From: Minisyncoccia bacterium
GTDB taxonomy: Bacteria; Patescibacteriota; Minisyncoccia; Phycocordibacterales; PALSA-1337
Direction: 5' to 3'
Length of the DNA: 64,000 nucleotides
Assembly: GCA_049997795.1 (NCBI GenBank)
Contig: JBEKVT010000002.1
Coordinates: 129,664 to 193,663, forward strand
This document shows positions 4,558 to 64,000 of the stretch, one piece after another. Every line of letters begins with the position of its first letter. Positions within the stretch are counted from its first letter, which is position 1. The position numbers and the translations under genes are program-made. The notes under the pieces are model-generated. The model was not told the origin of the DNA and searched no databases. It saw only the letters and a program-made list of their open reading frames with translations.

Positions 4558-6726
<2,169 letters not shown>

Positions 6727-7179: not shown

Positions 7180-7285
7180 GATTATGTATATGATTAAGGT
7201 ATAATACGGCAACGACCGGCTATTGGGTATTGCTTGTCGCATGCTATGTTAATGACACAGAAATGTCAAGTATGTCCATACTTCC

Positions 7286-8596
7286 ATGATCATCCTCGGG
7301 ATTGAGACTTCATGCGATGAGACGGCCCTGGCGCTTCTCGAGACGCGAGGGCATGGAGCGCCAGCCGGCCGGCGGATCGAATGCCGCGTGATATCCTCTC
7401 TCGTCCATTCGCAAGCGGACCTGCACAGCCCTTACGGCGGCGTCTTCCCTTCCCTCGCCAAGCGCGAACACGGCAAGAACCTCGTGCCGCTTTTGCACAA
7501 GCTGCTCACGGAGGCGGAACGGGAAGAGGCCCTGAAGAGTACGACGTCGGCGCGGCCATCGCGCCGCGTCTCATTCTCGCCGACGCATGGAAACCGGCAT
7601 TCCGATATCGAGCGTGCGTCGGCTCCGAAAGCCTCTTCAGAACCTCTTCCCGTTCCGCTCGAAGACATCCTCGAGCAGTTCCGTGCCGAGGTAGCGCCTC
7701 AGAATCCGGAACTGTTCGAATCTTTTGCCGCGGCCGATTTCCTGAAAGACGCGCCGCCTATGATAGACAAGATCGCCGTGACCGAAGGGCCGGGTTTGGA
7801 GCCGACTCTGTGGGTCGGCATAAATTTCGCCAGGATGCTCGCGGCTCTCTGGAAGGCGCCGATCGTGCCTGTCGACCACATGGAGGGGCACATCGTCGGC
7901 TCGCTCCTTGCGCCGGAGGCGATGGACGGCGCCTGGCACGGATTGCACGAAGCGCCGATGCCGGCCGTCGCTCTTCTCATAAGCGGCGGCCACACGGAAT
8001 TGGTGGAAGTGCGGAAGATCGGCGATTATAAAGTCATCGGCAAGACCCGGGACGATGCCGTGGGCGAAGCTTTCGACAAGGCGGCCAGGCTTATCGGCCT
8101 GCCCTATCCGGGAGGGCCGCATATAGAAGAACTCTCGCAGCTGGCGCGGGCGGAAAATCTGGAGCCGCCGGTAAAACTCCCCCGCCCGATGGTGAATAGC
8201 GGGAACCTCGATTTTTCCTTTTCAGGCCTGAAGACGGCCGTGCTGTACGCGGTGCGAGCCGCGCCGAAAGATCGGGGCGGAGTTTTGAGCGACGAATGGA
8301 AAAAAGGCCTGGCCCGCGAATTCGAACAGGCCGTTGTCGAGACTCTGGAAGCAAAATTGCGCTCGGCCGTAGAAAAGACCGGCGCGCGATCGATAATCGT
8401 GGGCGGCGGCGTCTCCGCCAACCGTTCCTTGCAGGAGAATTTCAAAAAAATCGCGGCGGAAAACGGCATCCCGCTCTTCCTGCCGACGCAGCATGTCTCC
8501 GGCGACAATGCTCTGATGATCGCTCTTGCCGGAGCCATGCATGACGAGACGAGAGCGCCCGGGAAAATCCGGGCGCATGGCACGAAAAGCCTTTGA
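7286..8596 (+). CDS. tsaD: tRNA N6-adenosine threonylcarbamoyltransferase TsaD carrying a ~95-aa low-complexity insertion
   Basis: 'MIILGIETSCDETALAL', 'HMEGH', 'GGGVSAN'. An insertion lies between 'LLHKLLTEAE' and 'IDKIAVTEGPGL'. Confidence 0.8.
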   Translation: MIILGIETSCDETALALLETRGHGAPAGRRIECRVISSLVHSQADLHSPYGGVFPSLAKREHGKNLVPLLHKLLTEAEREEALKSTTSARPSRRVSFSPTHGNRHSDIERASAPKASSEPLPVPLEDILEQFRAEVAPQNPELFESFAAADFLKDAPPMIDKIAVTEGPGLEPTLWVGINFARMLAALWKAPIVPVDHMEGHIVGSLLAPEAMDGAWHGLHEAPMPAVALLISGGHTELVEVRKIGDYKVIGKTRDDAVGEAFDKAARLIGLPYPGGPHIEELSQLARAENLEPPVKLPRPMVNSGNLDFSFSGLKTAVLYAVRAAPKDRGGVLSDEWKKGLAREFEQAVVETLEAKLRSAVEKTGARSIIVGGGVSANRSLQENFKKIAAENGIPLFLPTQHVSGDNALMIALAGAMHDETRAPGKIRAHGTKSL

Positions 8597-57206: not shown

Positions 57207-57404
57207 AACTATTTCTGGCGGCAGTTTTTACTTGAAGTTCGAACTTTTTTCGCCGAAAATCCGTGCCCATGAATCATTGCGCCTTCGCTCCGCTTGGCGC
57301 TCGGAAAAGGGCGGACGGCGGCCGGGGGTGTGGGGGTTCCTCTTCGTTTTCGCGCGCCGCCCTGCTGATTTTTTCGGGGGCGATTCGGAACAAGATCCAA
57401 GTTA

Positions 57405-57437
57405 CCTGTGGCTCATTTGGTGGATTTGAGCCACAGG
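57405..57437. repeat. Perfect 11-bp-stem hairpin 'CCTGTGGCTCA-tttggtggatt-TGAGCCACAGG'
   Basis: Read directly. It is one of two inverted copies of the same palindromic element. Confidence 0.55.
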
Positions 57438-57632
57438 CATTTTAGCACAGGTTTGGGAGGCTCGAAGCGGCCCACTTCCGCTTCAGATAGAGTTCTGTAG
57501 CGCGTTCGGCGTCAGTCCGTGTGGCTCCATTGCATTTCGCCGCACCGACATTCCGCCAGACGCGGATGGCAGTTGATGGAAGAAGCGGAAGTCGGCCGCT
57601 TCTCGGCGGAAGTTGGTGGTGAATCTGAAACA

Positions 57633-57665
57633 CATGTGGCTCATTTCCACCATATGAGCCACAAC
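57633..57665. repeat. Second copy, inverted, of the TGTGGCTCA hairpin element: 'TGTGGCTCAT-ttccaccat-ATGAGCCACA'
   Basis: The loop is the complement of the first copy's loop. It lies immediately 3' of the wHTH gene and may serve as its terminator. Confidence 0.5.
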
Positions 57666-57670
57666 TGGGT

Positions 57671-58228
57671 TTAGTGAAGAAACTGGTACTTGGCATCGCG
57701 CGGGTTTCCCGCGCGTGCAAGGTGGCCTTGCTGGACTAACTTGACCAGATATCTCGTTGCTGTGGCGCTGGAGATGTGCAAGGTCTTCTGCACATCTTCG
57801 TTGGCTATGATTTTCTTTTTCTGTGCCAACAGAATGATCTTGTCGAGCTTCTTCTGTTTGTTTGACTGGATTTTTGCATTCGCTTTGGCGAGCAGAGCGC
57901 GGATGAAGCCGGTCTGGTCTGGTTGCGCCGGCGATTGCGCCTGTGGCACTTGCGGAGTCGGTGCCGCCGGCGCGGACACAGGAGGTGGCGCAGGTTGTAA
58001 TGGTTCAGAAATCGGCTCAGACGCAGGTTCTGTTGTTGGCTCATCTGTCGCAGGCACTGTCATCTGATCTTCGACTGGAGCAACTGGCACAGATTCAGTA
58101 GGTTCAGAAATTGGTTCAGAAACCGGAGTGTTATCAGTTACCATTTCTACTTGAGCAGGTTCTGGCGCAGGAACCTCTGAAACCACCGGTTCAGCTACTG
58201 GCGCGCTTTGAGCATTTTCATCATCCAT
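57671..58228 (-). CDS. Winged-helix DNA-binding protein with a long acidic Pro/Glu-rich N-terminal region
   Basis: The C-terminus 'IIANEDVQKTLHISSATATRYLVKLVQQGHLARAGNPRDAKYQF' is wHTH-like. The N-terminus holds 'PVSEPISEP' repeats. Confidence 0.5.
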   Translation of the reverse strand: MDDENAQSAPVAEPVVSEVPAPEPAQVEMVTDNTPVSEPISEPTESVPVAPVEDQMTVPATDEPTTEPASEPISEPLQPAPPPVSAPAAPTPQVPQAQSPAQPDQTGFIRALLAKANAKIQSNKQKKLDKIILLAQKKKIIANEDVQKTLHISSATATRYLVKLVQQGHLARAGNPRDAKYQFLH

Positions 58229-58301
58229 GGAGATATTTTAGCATCAAAATAGGTCTATTTTTGAGCCTCCATAGAGCCACCGCATGAGCATGCTATTGGG
58301 C

Positions 58302-58330
58302 TTGCAATTTACATGGAGCTATGGTATAAT
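58302..58330 (+). promoter_or_regulatory. Sigma-70-type promoter (TTGCAA - 17 nt - TATAAT) upstream of the DMT transporter
   Basis: Perfect -10 and near-consensus -35 with a 17-nt spacer. A GGAGG RBS lies at 58381. Confidence 0.5.
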
Positions 58331-58390
58331 ACTAGAGTAGTTTCAAATAGTGATTTTTAACAATAAACCCTTAACCCTACGGAGGTCCAA

Positions 58391-58801
58391 ATGGATGGTT
58401 TACAAATCAAGGCCCTACTAGCTGGCCTATTCTTCGGATTGTGGCCGCTACTTATGAACAAGAGCGGACTCAATGGCAATGTTTCGGCGATGGCATTCGC
58501 TGGTCTGGTGTTGTTATTCGTCTCCCCTTTTGCCTTGAGCAACATCGGAGATCTTTCCAACACCAAATGGCTCATGGTCGTCGGAGCAGGCTTGTTCGGT
58601 GCCCTCGGCGTCATGTCCTTCAACGGCATGCTTGCCAAGGCAACCCCGCAGGCGGTGAGCACGCTCTTTGTTCTGATGATTGTGGTGCAAACAGCCGTTC
58701 CGGCTGTGTATCAAGTCATCATGAACGGTGGGCTTTCGCTCACCAAAGGATTAGGGTTTGCGCTCGCGGCGATCGCCGCGGTGCTACTCGTCAAGTCCTG
58801 A
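58391..58801 (+). CDS. Small 4-TM EamA/DMT-superfamily (SMR-like) transporter
   Basis: 136 aa, four hydrophobic helices. A terminator-like 'GCGAGGCGGGTTTTCTTTTTG' follows at ~58835-58860. Confidence 0.55.
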   Translation: MDGLQIKALLAGLFFGLWPLLMNKSGLNGNVSAMAFAGLVLLFVSPFALSNIGDLSNTKWLMVVGAGLFGALGVMSFNGMLAKATPQAVSTLFVLMIVVQTAVPAVYQVIMNGGLSLTKGLGFALAAIAAVLLVKS

Positions 58802-58914
58802 AAAGAGTTTACACGCCCGCTTTGCACAGAAAATCTGTCGCGAGGCGGGTTTTCTTTTTGGGCTGATAGGCAAGCACCTTGGAAACGAGGTATTTCTATG
58901 TTATCGTTTTATGA

Positions 58915-59631
58915 ATGAAAAACCGTAACTTTTTCTTTCAACAATACGACAAAATCAATTGGGCGAATCAAGACAAGACGAATCTGAACGTCGCTGTATA
59001 CCAGCACTTGATCGAGAACATCATCTCCAAGAAAGATGGGCCTTTTAAGCTATTCGATGTGGGCTCTGGTATAGGATTATTTATCCGACTGCTCAAGGAA
59101 AAGTTCGGCAATTCTGTCCGCATCGATGGCTGTGAGCCGTCGAAAAAGAGCTATGACTATTTTATGAAGAGTGACATAGATAAGACTAACGTCACGATAT
59201 ATCCTGAAACGTTCCAAAACATCAAAACAAATGAGAAATTTGATTTCATAACCGCAATATATGTCTTTCCGCATTTTATAGAAGCGGATTTAGGCAAGGT
59301 CGCACAAAAAATATCCAGCATGCTCAATGAAGCTGGAAAGTTGATCATCGTGGTCTCCAATGAAGAATATTTACGAAATAAGTTAGAGACTAAAAAAGAT
59401 CTCTTTATCGAAAAGAATGTAATCGAATTTAAGGGCAAGGAGTATAAGGAATATCTGCACTATGTCGAGATTCCTGATATGGGAACTGTCATAGATTACG
59501 ATAGAGAAGAAGATTACTATAAAGATTTGCTGGAGGATAACGGGTTGAGATTTGTGAAAAAGGACAAGATAAACAGCGACGAATACATCTGCACCATATT
59601 CACTTTTGAGAAAGGCGAACTCACTAAGTGA
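58915..59631 (+). CDS. Class I SAM-dependent methyltransferase (low GC, ~37%)
   Basis: Motif I 'LFDVGSGIGLF'. Motif II-like 'FDFITAIYVFPHF'. Confidence 0.65.
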   Translation: MKNRNFFFQQYDKINWANQDKTNLNVAVYQHLIENIISKKDGPFKLFDVGSGIGLFIRLLKEKFGNSVRIDGCEPSKKSYDYFMKSDIDKTNVTIYPETFQNIKTNEKFDFITAIYVFPHFIEADLGKVAQKISSMLNEAGKLIIVVSNEEYLRNKLETKKDLFIEKNVIEFKGKEYKEYLHYVEIPDMGTVIDYDREEDYYKDLLEDNGLRFVKKDKINSDEYICTIFTFEKGELTK

Positions 59632-59678
59632 TCGCAAATAACGGCACTGATTCTAGCCCGTGGCAAAAGTAGCGGAAT

Positions 59679-60230
59679 ATGCTAATGTTTTATGCAATGA
59701 AATACCATCTAGGGGAAGCATACGATTTCTATAAGAAATTCATATACAACAAGGAAAAGCAGACTCTGCTCGCAGAACGCAATCTTCACGTCGCCGGAAG
59801 CGTTCCGTCCGTGGACTGGGAGCTGTTCGGCGCTATTCTCACCGGCGATGACGGCAAGGGCGGCTATGGCTCAGATCTCAAGCGTCACGAGATCAAATCG
59901 TCCGTAAGCGGCGCGAGCTTCGAATATCAATATCACTTGAACGGCGGCATGAAGAAGCTCGCCGACGACATGAAAGTCGACCACATCTTCATCTCATACA
60001 GCCCAGACTACAGAGACATCGAGGCGCGAGTCATCAAGGGAACCGTCCTGAAAAAGACCTTCAAGGGCTGGGAGCCGGGATTGATTGAGAACTACGCAGG
60101 CCCGAACAGGAAACAACGCTATCGCCGTAGTATCTCGTACGGGACGGTCAAGTCCGACGGCAAGCTTATACTGAAAATTGAACAGGGCGAGCTCGTCCAA
60201 GACGAAGCGTCTGTTGCAACGAAGAAATAG
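59679..60230 (+). CDS. Putative Type II restriction endonuclease (PD-(D/E)xK fold), convergent with the C5-MTase
   Basis: 'GSDLKRHEIKS' fits a D-x(n)-E-x-K catalytic core. 183 aa. Its 3' end overlaps the methyltransferase 3' end by 65 nt. Confidence 0.45.
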   Translation: MLMFYAMKYHLGEAYDFYKKFIYNKEKQTLLAERNLHVAGSVPSVDWELFGAILTGDDGKGGYGSDLKRHEIKSSVSGASFEYQYHLNGGMKKLADDMKVDHIFISYSPDYRDIEARVIKGTVLKKTFKGWEPGLIENYAGPNRKQRYRRSISYGTVKSDGKLILKIEQGELVQDEASVATKK

Positions 60231-61377
60231 AATTCAGATAGTGATTGCCTAGCCACTCCAAGACTGGCACGCAGACGGCATCGCCGAAGCCGAAAAGGAC
60301 ATCGTTCAAGGAAAGATCTGGATTTATCTTGAATTCATCAGCACCCATCAATCTGGCGGCCTCTTTTCCGTTTATCAGGCGCGCATCAATCTTTCCCCGG
60401 CCAGCTCTCACGATTATCTGCCTTGCACTTCCTCCTTTCGGGGTACGCAAACAGCCAGCGATTCCATCTGTACGCAACTCGGCAGTCGAGAGCGACTTAC
60501 CGTTGCGAACCCTCATCCGGCGAAATACAGTGAAATAGGAATATCTCGATTCTTTCTTTTTTGCTTCCAGAATGATCTTATGCCTGTCGTGCATTTGGTC
60601 ATACAGATATTCGGTTCTTTCTTTTTCCCACCATTCCGCCGAGGGATCGACTATCTCTTCGAGAGAAATCTGCCGTTGCGGCAGGTTCGGCAAGGAATGA
60701 AAATACCATTTCAGATCGGCGTTAGCGGAGATATATTCGGCTATCTTCTCCGGTCGAGCATTTGATGACCCGAGATTATGTTGTTGCGACAATATGTCAT
60801 CGGCCAGGCCAGATACGTTCACGGCCGAACTGTGCACGCCGACTACGAATATCCTTACGCGGCTTTGCGGCACGAAGTTCGCACCGTTGATCATGATGAG
60901 GTCCACCAGATATCCCAGCTCATTGAGTGAGCTAAGGACGGCTCTCAAGTCCTTCCCTTGATTTGACGAAAGCAGGCCTTCGACATTCTCCACGAGAACG
61001 AACGGGGGTTTCCCATCTCCGCGCTCCGCACGCATCTCCTTCAGAATGCGTAGGAAGTGCCAAAATGCCGACGACTCTCCGGCGTGTATTCCTCCACGCG
61101 CTCCGGCGACCGAAAGATCAGTGCAAGGAAACGAGGCATGGGCCAGCATCACGTCAGGAACGTCCTTTCCTTTAACGTCTGCGATGTCGCTTACGTGGTA
61201 GTGGCCTTGGCCGAAATTATTCTCATACGCGGCCGCCTTCGCTTTCTCATAGTCAAGGGCATAGACCGTTTTCCAGCCGGCTTTCTCAAGTCCCATCGTG
61301 ACAAGACCGATGCCGGCGAAAAAATCAGCGACTGTCTTTTCTTTCATCTTCGGTTTTGTAATGCTCATTGATAACAT
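60166..61377 (-). CDS. DNA (cytosine-5)-methyltransferase
   Basis: Motif I 'DFFAGIGL', motif IV 'FPCTDLS', motif VI 'ENVEGL', plus a C-terminal target-recognition domain. Confidence 0.9.
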   Translation of the reverse strand: MLSMSITKPKMKEKTVADFFAGIGLVTMGLEKAGWKTVYALDYEKAKAAAYENNFGQGHYHVSDIADVKGKDVPDVMLAHASFPCTDLSVAGARGGIHAGESSAFWHFLRILKEMRAERGDGKPPFVLVENVEGLLSSNQGKDLRAVLSSLNELGYLVDLIMINGANFVPQSRVRIFVVGVHSSAVNVSGLADDILSQQHNLGSSNARPEKIAEYISANADLKWYFHSLPNLPQRQISLEEIVDPSAEWWEKERTEYLYDQMHDRHKIILEAKKKESRYSYFTVFRRMRVRNGKSLSTAELRTDGIAGCLRTPKGGSARQIIVRAGRGKIDARLINGKEAARLMGADEFKINPDLSLNDVLFGFGDAVCVPVLEWLGNHYLNSISSLQQTLRLGRARPVQFSV

Positions 61378-61483
61378 TTTATCAGATAATGATTGAAATG
61401 GATAAGGTGCTTATATTATAGCCGATGCGTAAAGGCCGTCAAGGGTTATTGCACTATTTCAAAGAGTATGCTATCATACGACT

Positions 61484-62155
61484 ATGATGCATAAAATACA
61501 GGAAAAACTGCTAATGCTCTCGAAAGAGAGGAACCTCGGCCAGCACTCGTTGCGCCAGATCGGCGAGATGGTAGGCGGAGCCTCCCCGCAGACTATAAAG
61601 CACCACCTCAATCAGCTTGAAAAGAAAGGGCTGATACGGGTGGACAAGGCAAAGGGCCTCGTTGAAAAGACCAAGCCCGGCTGGGCAGAGACATCGATGA
61701 AGAATGCCCGGCTCCTGGTCCTTCCGATACTCGGCGGCGCGAATGCTGGTCCGGCCGTCATAAATGCCGAAGAGAACATCGAGGGCTATCTGCGAGTATC
61801 GAACAGCATCGTCGGCAGGAAAAGCGGGGACGGGCTTTTCGCCCTTCGCGTAAGCGGCCCGTCCATGAACAAGGCCTCGTTCGATGGAAAGACGATCGAG
61901 GACGGCGACTACATCATCGTAGACGGCAAGGATCGTTCGCCGCGCGACGGAGATATCGTTCTTTCCGTAATAGACCGTATGGCGAATGTGAAGCGTTTCC
62001 ATTTCGACAAGGACAGCGGGCAAATCGCCCTTGTGTCGGAATCGACGCAGAACTTCCCCCCGATCTACATGCATCAGAGCGACGACTACATGATCAACGG
62101 CAAGGTCGTGCAGGTCATTAAAAAGCCGAAAACTAACTCTCAACCCTCGTCATGA
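61484..62155 (+). CDS. lexA: LexA-like repressor (N-terminal wHTH plus C-terminal S24 autopeptidase)
   Basis: Collinear with LexA. wHTH 'LRQIGEMVGGASPQTIKHHLNQLEKKGLI'. Cleavage region 'LPILGGANAGP'. 'LRVSGPSMNK' holds the catalytic Ser and 'VKRF' the Lys. A promoter-like TTGCAC-17-TATCAT and the palindrome ATCATAcgacTATGAT lie upstream. Confidence 0.8.
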   Translation: MMHKIQEKLLMLSKERNLGQHSLRQIGEMVGGASPQTIKHHLNQLEKKGLIRVDKAKGLVEKTKPGWAETSMKNARLLVLPILGGANAGPAVINAEENIEGYLRVSNSIVGRKSGDGLFALRVSGPSMNKASFDGKTIEDGDYIIVDGKDRSPRDGDIVLSVIDRMANVKRFHFDKDSGQIALVSESTQNFPPIYMHQSDDYMINGKVVQVIKKPKTNSQPSS

Positions 62156-62658
62156 TTTCAATATATTCAGCGCTCGGAACGATCTCGACCTTCGACGGCG
62201 TCGTTCATGTAATCATCGGACTCATCGTCGCTTCCGCATTTCTAGCCGCATTTTCTGTTTTTTTCTTCAAAAAAGAGATCCGGCTATTCCTGAATCGCCG
62301 ACGGCCGATAAAGATATTCATGGCTGATGGCGTGAATATGGGAGCGGAGGTGGAAATGCTTCGTAAAAGCAAGCTATTCAAAATAGAGGAACCGACGACC
62401 GACCATAGGCAATGCGACGGCATTGGAAACCACAGCCTTATTATCATCGGCTATAAACGCCAGATGGCCGGACTCTCCGATATCGTCAACGCCGCGCGCA
62501 CAGCAAAGATTCCGGTAATCGTTTACGCAAAGGAACAGCTCGAGGAAACCGATAAGAGCCTCTTGAACAGCTATTCCTGGCATTCAGTCTGCAATTTCCC
62601 TCTCAAGCTCATGAATGACGTGTTTACCATATTATCAACGTTCCCTAAAATGAAATAA
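62152..62658 (+). CDS. Single-TM protein with a Rossmann/CheY-like (possibly SLOG/TIR-like) cytoplasmic domain
   Basis: Its ATGA overlaps the lexA-like stop. N-terminal TM, then alternating beta/alpha elements 'IKIFMADG...SLIIIGY...IPVIVYAKE'. Confidence 0.45.
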   Translation: MISIYSALGTISTFDGVVHVIIGLIVASAFLAAFSVFFFKKEIRLFLNRRRPIKIFMADGVNMGAEVEMLRKSKLFKIEEPTTDHRQCDGIGNHSLIIIGYKRQMAGLSDIVNAARTAKIPVIVYAKEQLEETDKSLLNSYSWHSVCNFPLKLMNDVFTILSTFPKMK

Positions 62659-62661
62659 GCC

Positions 62662-63669
62662 ATGACAACATCAGAATATTTCGAGAAGCTCCTAGACCGA
62701 GTCAATCTGAAGATCGACGATGACGAACGCAAAATGATAGAAGAAAAACATAACGGCTTTCGTGAGATGTTGCTCGCCAAGCTGCCCTTGAAGGACGATT
62801 TTCTTACAGGCTCATATCGCAGACATACGATTATCAAGCCCAGAAAAGACGGAGACAAATTCGACGTCGATGTTTTCGTGGCTTTTGATAAAGAGGATTA
62901 TGGCGAGAAAGAGCTCGCTGAACTGCGAGGCGAGGTAGCCGAGGCCTTGAACGCTATCAAGGATGAAAATCCTGAGCTTGGCATCACGAATGTAAACGAT
63001 AGCCAACGGCGATCTGTGTGCGTCGAATTCGGCAACAACTTCCGAATAGATGTCGTGCCCTCGATCGAGATCGAAAAGGACAAGCTCTACAAGATATTCG
63101 ATCGACGGACTCTCAAAGCAATCAAATCAAACCCAAAATTGCACGCGGCTCTTTTGAGCGAAGCGAATGAGAAGACCGGCGGCAGGCTTGTGCCCGTCAT
63201 CAAAATCCTGAAAGGATGGAAGCGCGTCAAGTGCGATTATGTTAAGTCCTTTCACATCGAGATGCTGGCATTGGACATATTGGGCAACGCTGAAATATCG
63301 TCATATGCCGAAGGGGTCGCCAAATTCTTTTCCGATGCCGGATCAAAGCTTCAGAAGGCTTCCCTGGCAGACCCAGCCAACAAGGAACACTATATCGACG
63401 CATATCTGGACGATGACGGGAATCGTCAACGGCTTCTTGGCATTATCGCGACCGAGGATGACGCTGCGTGTCGAGCGCTCGATGCCGAGAAAAGGGAAAA
63501 CGGAGATCCGGTCAAAGAGTGGGAATCTATATTTGAAAACGCTGATACGGATATCGCCAAAGCCATAGAGAGCGGCAGCTTTGCCATGGGTATCGGAGGC
63601 ATCCGGGTGGGCGGAACAACAAGCCATGGCAGATCAATCAAATCACCAAATTCCTGGAGAGCCGACTAA
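62662..63669 (+). CDS. Minimal nucleotidyltransferase of the SMODS / cGAS-DncV-like (CD-NTase) type
   Basis: 'GSYRRHTIIKPRKDGDKFDVDVFVAF' (GS...[DE]hD NTase core) and a downstream 'FRIDVVPS' third acidic residue. A helical C-terminal domain. It starts 3 nt after the preceding gene. Confidence 0.55.
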   Translation: MTTSEYFEKLLDRVNLKIDDDERKMIEEKHNGFREMLLAKLPLKDDFLTGSYRRHTIIKPRKDGDKFDVDVFVAFDKEDYGEKELAELRGEVAEALNAIKDENPELGITNVNDSQRRSVCVEFGNNFRIDVVPSIEIEKDKLYKIFDRRTLKAIKSNPKLHAALLSEANEKTGGRLVPVIKILKGWKRVKCDYVKSFHIEMLALDILGNAEISSYAEGVAKFFSDAGSKLQKASLADPANKEHYIDAYLDDDGNRQRLLGIIATEDDAACRALDAEKRENGDPVKEWESIFENADTDIAKAIESGSFAMGIGGIRVGGTTSHGRSIKSPNSWRAD

Positions 63670-64000
63670 GCAATGGCATGAACTGCTTCCGGAACGGTTC
63701 AAAGAGGAAGCCCTGCTGATGCAGGAGGACTTTCCTGATTTTGCCATTCATAATGAGCCAGGAAAAAATGTTTATTGGACTGGAGAAGCGAAAGCGCTTC
63801 GCCCTGACGGTTCGACTCTGAAATCTCTTCACATAAAGATCGAGTGCGCTCCGAATTATCCCAAAATATTTCCGCGAGTATCTGACACGGCCGGCGTACT
63901 TAACCTTAAAACATGCCCGCATCTTTCCAAATTTGACGGAGACAAATTCGCCTTTTGTTATGGCAATCGTTTGGATGCGCAACTCGATTTTGAAGGAAAC
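63626..64000 (+). CDS. Ubiquitin-conjugating E2-like (UBC-fold) protein, cut off by the window end; possibly the N-terminus of a Cap2-like E2(-E1)
   Basis: A complete ORF-track entry is absent because the gene runs off the window. My translation 'VYWTGEAK..DGSTLKSLHIKIECAPNYPKIFPRVSD...CPHLSKFDGDKFAFCYG' matches the UBC pattern (YP..PP.v.F ... HPN ... G.iC). It overlaps the NTase 3' end by 44 nt in another frame. Confidence 0.45.
   Translation, partial: MADQSNHQIPGEPTKQWHELLPERFKEEALLMQEDFPDFAIHNEPGKNVYWTGEAKALRPDGSTLKSLHIKIECAPNYPKIFPRVSDTAGVLNLKTCPHLSKFDGDKFAFCYGNRLDAQLDFEGN

Follow-up and report, generated by a model that had tools for sequence, protein, structure and literature searches.

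The end of the stretch analysed here (the window: 64,000 nucleotides of a contig from a Minisyncoccia bacterium, numbered from its first letter) carries an operon of four genes that we read as an E2-only antiphage system signalling through cyclic oligonucleotides (CBASS), lying on a small integrative island and placed under a LexA-type self-cleaving repressor that is itself the first gene. We hold this reading, which is drawn from sequence, with a probability of roughly 0.65. DNA damage sensed via RecA would probably switch this CBASS on, a mode of switching thought probable because the pairing of LexA-type genes with CBASS recurs in unrelated bacteria.

The silencing and switching-on of abortive-infection systems is an active question, and the regulators described to date (CapW, CapH/CapP, CapK/CapS and BrxR) all indicate DNA damage as the trigger. 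With a repressor of the LexA type the sensor would be RecA*, the oldest and best understood one for damage, and the proposal is thereby testable with standard SOS tools. In addition, the locus is an example of a complete and apparently mobile CBASS in a bacterium of the candidate phyla radiation (CPR), and it points to an unstudied membrane effector family common to CBASS and type III CRISPR.

Operon organization and the LexA-type first gene

The operon consists of four plus-strand open reading frames (ORFs), for which we recovered the same overlaps and gap as an earlier note on this DNA:

61484-62155, + strand: LexA-type repressor gene, 223 aa (start at 61484 or 61487, MMHKIQ/MHKIQ)
62152-62658, + strand: gene assigned to an effector with one transmembrane helix (1-TM), 168 aa
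62662-63669, + strand: gene for a cyclase of the CD-NTase (SMODS) type, nucleotidyltransferases that resemble cGAS and DncV, 335 aa
63626 to the window end (64000), + strand: E2-like (UBC-fold) gene, cut by the window end

The lexA/TM junction is an ATGA overlap, a 3-nt gap separates the TM and cyclase genes, and the cyclase and E2 genes overlap by 44 nt; since the ORFs overlap or abut, no room is left for separate promoters of the TM, cyclase and E2 genes. The earlier remark that the segment is poor in GC holds, with a GC fraction of 0.49 over 57212-64000 and 0.588 over the first 55.7 kb of the window; the latter figure puts the host at about 59%, not at the ~63% given at the time. The lexA-type gene, at 0.546, is below the host and yet the highest in the cassette, the other genes of which range from 0.46 to 0.49.

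The first protein matches Peptidase_S24 (PF00717, 2.8e-20) and LexA_DNA_bind (PF01726, 1e-7) in Pfam, that is, a winged helix-turn-helix (wHTH) joined to an S24 autopeptidase, and among 25 members of the LexA family the Gly of the Ala-Gly site (GANA-GP), the Ser (GPSM) and the Lys (VKR) are all invariant. The proposal of a single-chain LexA homologue is thus borne out by both domains and by intact catalytic residues. Homologues in the family begin MHxIQ. Identity to E. coli LexA is 28%, and the score against the NCBIfam lexA equivalog TIGR00498 is 98.8 bits, under the cutoff of 110.95; in PADLOC, no model fits the protein apart from weak HTH matches. No WYL domain is found in it by Pfam, PADLOC or NCBIfam, and no metallopeptidase gene is present among the four ORFs of the operon (Pfam), in agreement with the earlier view that the architecture of this single-chain S24 peptidase repressor is unlike CapH/CapP and CapW.

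Cyclase, E2 and membrane effector

The assignment of the third protein to the SMODS/CD-NTases is confirmed by Pfam SMODS (1.3e-19; 71.5 bits against a cutoff of 26.5) and PADLOC Cyclase (4.7e-54); against the NCBIfam equivalog CBASS_cyclase_b it reaches 147 bits, under the cutoff of 200. Its nearest solved chains are 6P82/6P8U (1.7e-13), named just 'Nucleotidyltransferase' in the tool output, which we take to be CdnD of P. aeruginosa. The core reads GS...DVD...D, and the C-terminal tail, G-x-GG-x-x-VG ... SP(N/K)SW, is kept in three further loci (L057, L150 and L151) as a conserved GG/VGG with about 17 residues after it, the last of which are SP(N/K)SW.

The exact cyclase protein is present on 22 public contigs. 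Two of the fetched loci, L001 and L002 (~657 kb, mutually identical), share 99.85% identity with the last 11.3 kb of the window and extend past its end (an L002 coordinate equals the window coordinate minus 52661). As truncated in the window, the fourth protein is weakly E2-like in PADLOC; at full length it has 284 aa (L001 10965-11819), ends about 480 nt past the window and matches PADLOC E2 at 1.6e-18, with a C-terminal SEC-C zinc motif (Pfam 9.8e-9). An AlphaFold (AF2) model built from 40 homologues has a mean confidence score (pLDDT) of 92, and its Foldseek matches are exclusively UBC/UEV E2 folds; among these homologues the signature Y78-P79...P83, H99 and Cys111 ('AFCYG') is invariant or nearly so. 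The UBC/E2 fold with a catalytic-type Cys in 'AFCYG', as read earlier from the partial sequence, is accordingly upheld. The Pfam E2-CBASS model gives no match to the full-length protein, and the combination of E2 and SEC-C is very rare (4 matches in 5.8 billion proteins). Besides the SEC-C motif (CPCQSGKKFKKCC), closer homologues keep an upstream zinc-knuckle-like CPCG-x9-CH (E2 residues 178-191 and 218-235).

The earlier note had taken the pair for a CD-NTase with Cap2 and had suggested that an E1/JAB module or an effector may lie downstream. This did not survive extension past the window end, as the sequence beyond the E2 in L001/L002 holds neither an E1 or JAB gene nor another effector; next to the gene of the 284-aa E2 with its SEC-C motif come a repeat arm of 188 nt, the gene of a large serine recombinase and then a tRNA-Ser. 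On the basis of a stand-alone E2 that has neither an E1 nor a JAB partner, the system is classed as E2-only (type II short) CBASS, not Cap2/Cap3 type II.

The absence of a recognizable canonical effector, also claimed in the earlier note, was not confirmed. The second protein, which has a single TM helix at its N-terminus and, in the cytoplasm, an alpha/beta domain of flavodoxin/REC-like type, matches the PADLOC model C3a59 ('TM') at 7e-26 and the CBASS model 'Effector 1TM' at 9e-8; it has no Pfam match and no solved relative by sequence. The family is rare (37 clusters). In a CPR genome related to the host, a relative (L098, 5001-6796) immediately precedes a SMODS+AGS_C cyclase at the same GroEL-LemA-M48 neighbourhood, and at a type III-A CRISPR locus the genes csm1-csm5 are immediately followed by another (L100, 5001-5516). 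Because the PADLOC effector models match and relatives adjoin CD-NTases and a csm operon, the 1-TM protein is assigned as the CBASS effector, with its REC-like domain the presumed sensor of the cyclic oligonucleotide. The signal would probably be a cyclic oligoadenylate such as cA3, given that type III CRISPR has effectors of the same family and that the cyclase is closest to 6P82/6P8U.

Cam1, Csx23 and Cap15 are functionally similar small membrane effectors of cyclic-nucleotide immunity. What the protein of the window has in common with the small membrane effectors (C3a59, CBASS 'Effector 1TM') is an N-terminal TM helix joined to a small cytoplasmic domain and a position beside CD-NTases or Cas10 complexes; it differs in its soluble domain, which is flavodoxin/REC-like, lacks the phospho-acceptor Asp and has a fold that is not CARF, SAVED or beta-barrel. 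In L098 the effector and cyclase sit behind an MTase/MutH-like pair (MTase, methyltransferase), and the GroEL-LemA-M48 site may be a defence hotspot.

Recurrence of the cassette with LexA-type genes

Gene contexts were sampled in a few dozen loci. The cassette of TM, cyclase and E2-SEC-C genes occurs in four of them, counting the window, and a LexA-type neighbour is present in 4/4. The other three compare with the window as follows:

L057: LexA-type 56%, TM 47%, cyclase 56%, E2 49% identity; order as in the window
L150: LexA-type 26%, TM 67%, cyclase 74%, E2 55% identity; lexA upstream on the same strand, with an extra 153-aa gene before the TM gene
L151: LexA-type 29%, TM 28%, cyclase 51%, E2 46% identity; lexA divergent from TM-cyclase-E2

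All four proteins of L057 diverged in parallel from those of the window, and the repressors of L150 and L151 are about as far from that of the window (26-29%) as E. coli LexA is (28%). The same cassette is thus paired with three LexA lineages in two orientations, an observation that argues more strongly than any other for a functional linkage as opposed to hitch-hiking. Three unrelated LexA lineages on one cassette, together with one clade heading many systems, argue for selection on the regulatory logic. The earlier proposal of a CD-NTase and E2 system with its own LexA-type regulator therefore stands, both on these four loci and on the other defence operons headed by the clade to which the repressor of the window belongs. 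The inserted gene of L150 (5036-5497) has a weak match to a lamin-tail domain.

The LexA family and its defence-linked clade

A search of 5.8 billion proteins with the LexA-type protein gave 739 matches, with identities of ~60-65% across several phyla. In a clustering on identity by the unweighted pair group method with arithmetic mean (UPGMA), on which the term 'mobile clade' rests, the protein of the window groups with copies mostly from Acidobacteriota and some from CPR metagenome-assembled genomes, with no shared synteny. The genes directly downstream of these copies are the following:

L013: CD-NTase-E2-patatin (CBASS II-short)
L096: patatin-CD-NTase-Cap2-Cap3 (full CBASS)
L019: SMODS
L018, L092: SAVED-HNH (L092 outside the identity cluster of the window)
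L020, L024: Pycsar cyclases
L016: DUF1883-TIR
L011: DUF2188-TIR-8xMP
L032: LmuA-like protein (Lamassu-like)
L021: GASH + DO-GTPase2
L014, L015/L095, L017, L040, L097: unknown proteins

Gene calls in the fetched loci come from a crude ORF finder (the SAVED-HNH gene of L018 was fused with its neighbour), and the cargo assignments therefore rest on family matches, not on gene boundaries. The segment 59661-62131 of the window (2.47 kb; a 183-aa ORF, the cytosine methyltransferase gene dcm and the lexA-type gene) has 73.5% nucleotide identity to L095 34-2506 and L015 5143-7615, and the shared block ends at 62131, the 3' end of the lexA-type gene. The layout transposase-HTH-SNase-ParB/MTase-lexA is common to L011 and L150, of which the former has TIR cargo and the latter CBASS; the LexA-type gene of L150 is from another lineage than the clade of the window, to which L011 belongs. 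To judge from these loci, the defence cargo is swapped exactly at the lexA 3' end. In L095/L015 two genes (119 and 381 aa) follow the lexA-type gene instead of CBASS; they have no Pfam or PADLOC match and could be undescribed defence cargo. A gene of ~70-90 aa often stands between the LexA-type gene and the cargo (L011, L014, L017, L019, L020, L021 and L092; DUF2188 in at least three), and this gene, of which the window has none, could be a second regulatory component.

The distribution of the wider family raises an alternative, namely that the gene is the host's own global SOS LexA behind which a CBASS has landed, so that adjacency would say little about dedicated regulation. A scan with one genome per species found a LexA-type relative in 417 genomes, mostly Patescibacteria, and in several CPR sub-lineages the gene stands in conserved synteny with uracil-DNA glycosylase (UDG), PolX, ClpB, RNase HII, MgsA or MscL; this conserved position beside DNA-repair genes is the pattern of a housekeeping SOS regulator. 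Moreover, the 64-kb window contains no second S24 gene, and the DNA-binding helix and the upstream motif are common to the whole family. The copy in the window, however, lies inside a 7.1-kb low-GC segment bounded by repeats, and its own GC content is under that of the host, although it is the highest in the cassette. Its nearest relatives (82%, 74% and 67% identical) are found in other defence islands, many of them of Acidobacteriota, and the nucleotide homology with L095/L015 takes in dcm and lexA but does not extend into the cargo. In L057 the LexA-type protein and the rest of the cassette have diverged together, and elsewhere the cassette is paired with LexA lineages unrelated to this one. 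The suspicion that this might simply be the canonical SOS LexA is thus only half dispelled, as the wider family appears canonical in CPR bacteria (the host being one); we regard the global-regulator explanation as quite unlikely. A metagenome scan for a second LexA of the host, made with the LexA of Minisyncoccia SPRUCE-130, returned 45 loci, none of them on host contigs.

For a dedicated LexA-type regulator of CBASS, the same distribution allows a wider proposal. We suggest, tentatively and with slightly less than even confidence, that wHTH-S24 repressors of this kind form an undescribed portable class of regulators wiring CBASS, Pycsar, TIR, Lamassu-like and GTPase systems to RecA bound to single-stranded DNA (RecA-ssDNA); the clade would have been recruited from the CPR housekeeping LexA and would have spread with swappable cargo into Acidobacteriota, Ignavibacteria and others, here gating a 1-TM effector with a new cyclic-oligonucleotide sensor shared with type III CRISPR. 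The logic of damage-gated defence operons is known, whereas no description was found in the searchable literature of the regulator class, of its apparent recruitment from a CPR LexA or of this effector/E2 subtype.

Promoters and candidate operator

The region between dcm and the lexA-type gene contains the following elements:

61449-61477, + strand: likely operon promoter read from sequence, with -35 TTGCAC, a 17-nt spacer and -10 TATCAT preceded by TGc
61415-61442, - strand: divergent promoter-like site of dcm, with -35 TTGACG (61442-61437) and -10 TATAAT (61420-61415), 11/12 matches in a consensus scan
61429-61443, + strand: tandem repeat GTAAAGgccGTCAAG with 9-bp spacing, candidate operator, lying between the two divergent -35 boxes and overlapping them
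61473-61488, no strand assigned: palindrome ATCATAcgacTATGAT of the earlier note, built from the -10 box and the ATGATG start

The -10 box TATCAT ends 6 nt before the ATG of the lexA-type gene, and because of this short distance the operon mRNA is probably leaderless. A TANNNT hexamer lies 4-11 nt before the start in 49/70 members of the LexA family (37% of control genes), while a Shine-Dalgarno-like motif is found in only 9/70; the frequency of the former and the rarity of the latter suggest leaderless mRNAs in the family as well.

The tandem element reads GTAAAG-N3-GTCAAG in the window, with the general form GT(C/A)AAG (GTMAAG). The core GTCAA occurs upstream of 63 of the 70 family members, as opposed to 7.8% of background 120-nt windows, and its tandem form in 30 of the 70 upstream regions, as opposed to 0.7%. 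Across these regions its position peaks 54-57 nt before the ATG, its occurrence is independent of the orientation of the upstream gene, and in an alignment of 11 upstream regions the repeat forms the most conserved columns. We therefore consider the tandem GT(C/A)AAG repeat a candidate operator of the LexA-type repressor. The -35 boxes of the dcm and lexA-type promoters are 6 bp apart, and TTGACG, the -35 box of dcm, is the reverse complement of the GTCAA repeat.

The operator-like palindrome that the earlier note placed over the -10 box and start does exist, but perfect 6-N4-6 inverted repeats number 28 in the window, with 8 falling within its final 8 kb, which is chance level, and ATCATAcgacTATGAT is absent from the closest relatives L011, L015 and L095 (74-82% identical); it was rejected as the operator. 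A palindromic SOS box was not among the elements identified upstream of the LexA-type gene; what is conserved there is a tandem direct repeat. Further copies of the candidate operator were also sought in the window, where just two weak look-alikes, at 7265 (upstream of a tsaD-like gene) and 57732 (coding), were found and judged likely to be chance. At 7264-7281, 5 nt before the ATG of the tsaD-like gene (7286-8596), TGTCAAGTATGTCCATAC resembles the CPR lexA promoter motif TGTCAAGGTTGTCCACAG, which may again be chance.

Related elements were noticed in other loci. Upstream of the LexA-type gene heading the Cap2/Cap3 CBASS of L096, positions 5909-5960 hold five tandem 9-bp units (ATCAAGacc ATCAAGagc ATCAAGatt ATCAGGagc GTCATGttt), an expanded version of the GTCAAG repeat. 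A near-identical lexA promoter, cTGTCAAGGTTGTCCACAGTTACGCTTGACAG, is found ~60 nt upstream of lexA in a CPR sub-lineage (L064, L066, L072, L073, L075, L079 and L086) that includes Minisyncoccia SPRUCE-130, and in further CPR groups the GTCAA element is separated from the -10 box by an inverted repeat, TTACGG...CCGTAA. Both cTGTCAAGGTTGTCCACAGTTACGCTTGACAG and the TTACGG...CCGTAA repeat are candidates for the CPR SOS box.

Proposed mechanism and known systems

According to the mechanism that we propose, the repressor would bind the promoter region, with GTAAAG-N3-GTCAAG at the -35 box as the candidate site, keeping the lexA-TM-cyclase-E2 transcript low under autoregulation and possibly acting on the dcm promoter too. 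Phage replication or DNA damage would give rise to RecA-ssDNA filaments, upon which the repressor would cleave itself at its Ala-Gly site by means of the Ser/Lys dyad and the operon would be derepressed. RecA-stimulated self-cleavage is established for LexA, UmuD and lambda CI, and this precedent together with the intact catalytic residues is why we infer it here. The CD-NTase would then make a cyclic oligonucleotide, probably a cyclic oligoadenylate, while the E2 may act on the conserved C-terminal tail of the cyclase by analogy with the CdnG-E2 system of Serratia; binding of the nucleotide to the REC-like domain of the effector would lead to oligomerization, membrane damage and abortive infection.

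In Serratia marcescens CdnG-E2, the E2 trims and covalently binds the C-terminus of the cyclase (PMC12948482). The operon of the window resembles that system in combining a CD-NTase with a stand-alone UBC-fold E2 that has a conserved Cys and no E1/JAB, in the Gly-rich C-terminal tail of the cyclase with its extra residues, and in the E2 gene that follows directly and overlaps (PMC12948482). It differs in its cyclase, which is short (335 aa) and closest to 6P82/6P8U, in the SEC-C tail of its E2, a rare subfamily, and in having a 1-TM REC-like effector and a LexA-type first gene.

Several points weigh against the reading as a damage-gated CBASS operon. An operon transcribed together with its autorepressor could also be expressed constitutively at a low level instead of being induced by damage, and the conserved repeat coincides with the divergent -35 box, such that part of its conservation could reflect promoter function. 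The wider family is probably the canonical housekeeping LexA of CPR bacteria. The TM and cyclase pair of L098, which lacks an E2, has no LexA-type gene; since such a pair exists, a LexA-type regulator is not obligatory. Finally, the cyclases of published E2-CBASS are longer than the 335 aa found here and 73.65% of them belong to clade G (PMC12948482), which leaves the analogy for the E2 step a loose one.

CapW, CapH/CapP, CapK/CapS, BrxR and RptR are known DNA-damage-responsive regulators of CBASS and other immune operons. The LexA-type protein is like CapW, CapH/CapP and CapK/CapS in that a modular repressor heads or adjoins diverse defence operons and derepression upon damage is expected; it is unlike them in being one chain of wHTH and S24, with no WYL domain and no separate metallopeptidase or kinase, and in its expected cue, which is the RecA-ssDNA filament and not direct binding of ssDNA. 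The most recent of the publications on these regulators make no mention of LexA or S24 in the role of a defence regulator. Nor was a pairing of LexA/S24 with CBASS, SMODS or defence systems described in the literature searched, the scope of which did not include a study of the Patescibacteria SOS response that possibly defines the family motif.

With canonical LexA the protein shares LexA_DNA_bind and Peptidase_S24, the Ala-Gly site, the Ser/Lys dyad and a gene position suggesting autoregulation, and its family also includes the LexA of many CPR genomes, which is presumably a housekeeping one. It departs from canonical LexA in its distance from the E. coli protein, its score below the TIGR00498 cutoff and its location in a mobile low-GC island, as well as in an identity cluster found in defence islands of several phyla and in the conserved tandem direct repeat.

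The island and neighbouring genes

The surroundings of the operon contain the following features:

60166-61377, - strand: C5-cytosine methyltransferase gene (dcm), divergent from the lexA-type gene, member of a pair resembling restriction-modification (R-M) genes
59679-60230, + strand: 183-aa ORF with no family match, the other member of the R-M-like pair
57212-57399, no strand assigned: left arm of a 188-nt inverted repeat (L002 4534-4721); its partner, 98% identical, is at L002 11841-12028, just after the E2 gene and past the window
L002 12019-12214 and 13891-14086: second inverted-repeat pair, 196 nt, 99% identical, adjacent to the first

The 188-nt pair encloses the 7.1-kb low-GC defence segment, including the whole CBASS operon and its promoter, and the 196-nt pair encloses the 1.7-kb gene of the large serine recombinase, the ORF of which runs into tRNA-Ser(gga). 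The cargo segment is inverted in L003 relative to L002, and L005 has a junction that fits either both segments inverted or a circular form; since assemblies show different repeat junctions, the island is structurally polymorphic in nature. It is small, integrative and apparently mobile.

This setting suggests that the LexA-type gene could instead be a maintenance repressor of the island, comparable to lambda CI or SXT SetR and controlling the recombinase or methylase, with CBASS a co-transcribed passenger that is expressed while the repressor is intact, as rexAB is with cI. The recombinase next to tRNA-Ser, the two inverted-repeat pairs and the alternative orientations between assemblies would fit such a role, as would the overlap of the conserved repeat with the -35 box of the divergent dcm promoter and the MTase genes, some of them in ParB fusions of a kind typical for mobile elements, that stand divergent upstream in ~11/17 loci of the defence-linked group. 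The probably leaderless first cistron also resembles the lambda PRM transcript of cI-rexA-rexB, in which an S24 self-cleaving repressor comes first on a leaderless transcript with an abortive-infection system; there CI activates its own promoter and Rex is on while CI is intact. The protein of the window, however, has another DNA-binding domain, negative autoregulation with induction upon cleavage is expected for it, and the element that carries it is not a prophage. A scan of IMG/VR (2.9 million viral contigs) for the LexA family gave 3 weak matches, and a phage-repressor origin was rejected. Excision or conjugation genes are not consistently nearby, backbones vary among loci while the junction between LexA and defence cargo is the constant feature, and, as L151 with its repressor gene divergent from CBASS shows, the linkage does not require co-transcription. 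We consider control of island maintenance unlikely as the role of the gene.

The same neighbourhood would also be compatible with a LexA-type protein that chiefly controls the adjacent R-M genes in the manner of a C-protein, timing methylase and nuclease, with a secondary link to CBASS. It is to such a role that the divergent dcm with its closely spaced -35 box, the recurrence of methyltransferases upstream and the co-directional type IIG RM gene of the L151 repressor would point. Several loci, however, have HipA, Fic or AEP primase upstream and no methylase, the downstream defence cargo is the most constant neighbour, and a C-protein is a small HTH protein that has no peptidase domain, a comparison that leaves the conserved autocleavage residues unexplained; this explanation is very unlikely in our judgement. 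Given that an MTase gene is so often divergent upstream, the LexA-type repressor may control both directions. The upstream MTases are of the ParB_N-N6_N4_MTase type in L011, L017, L057, L092, L097 and L150 and of the Dcm type in the window, L015 and L095, with others in L013, L014 and L016.

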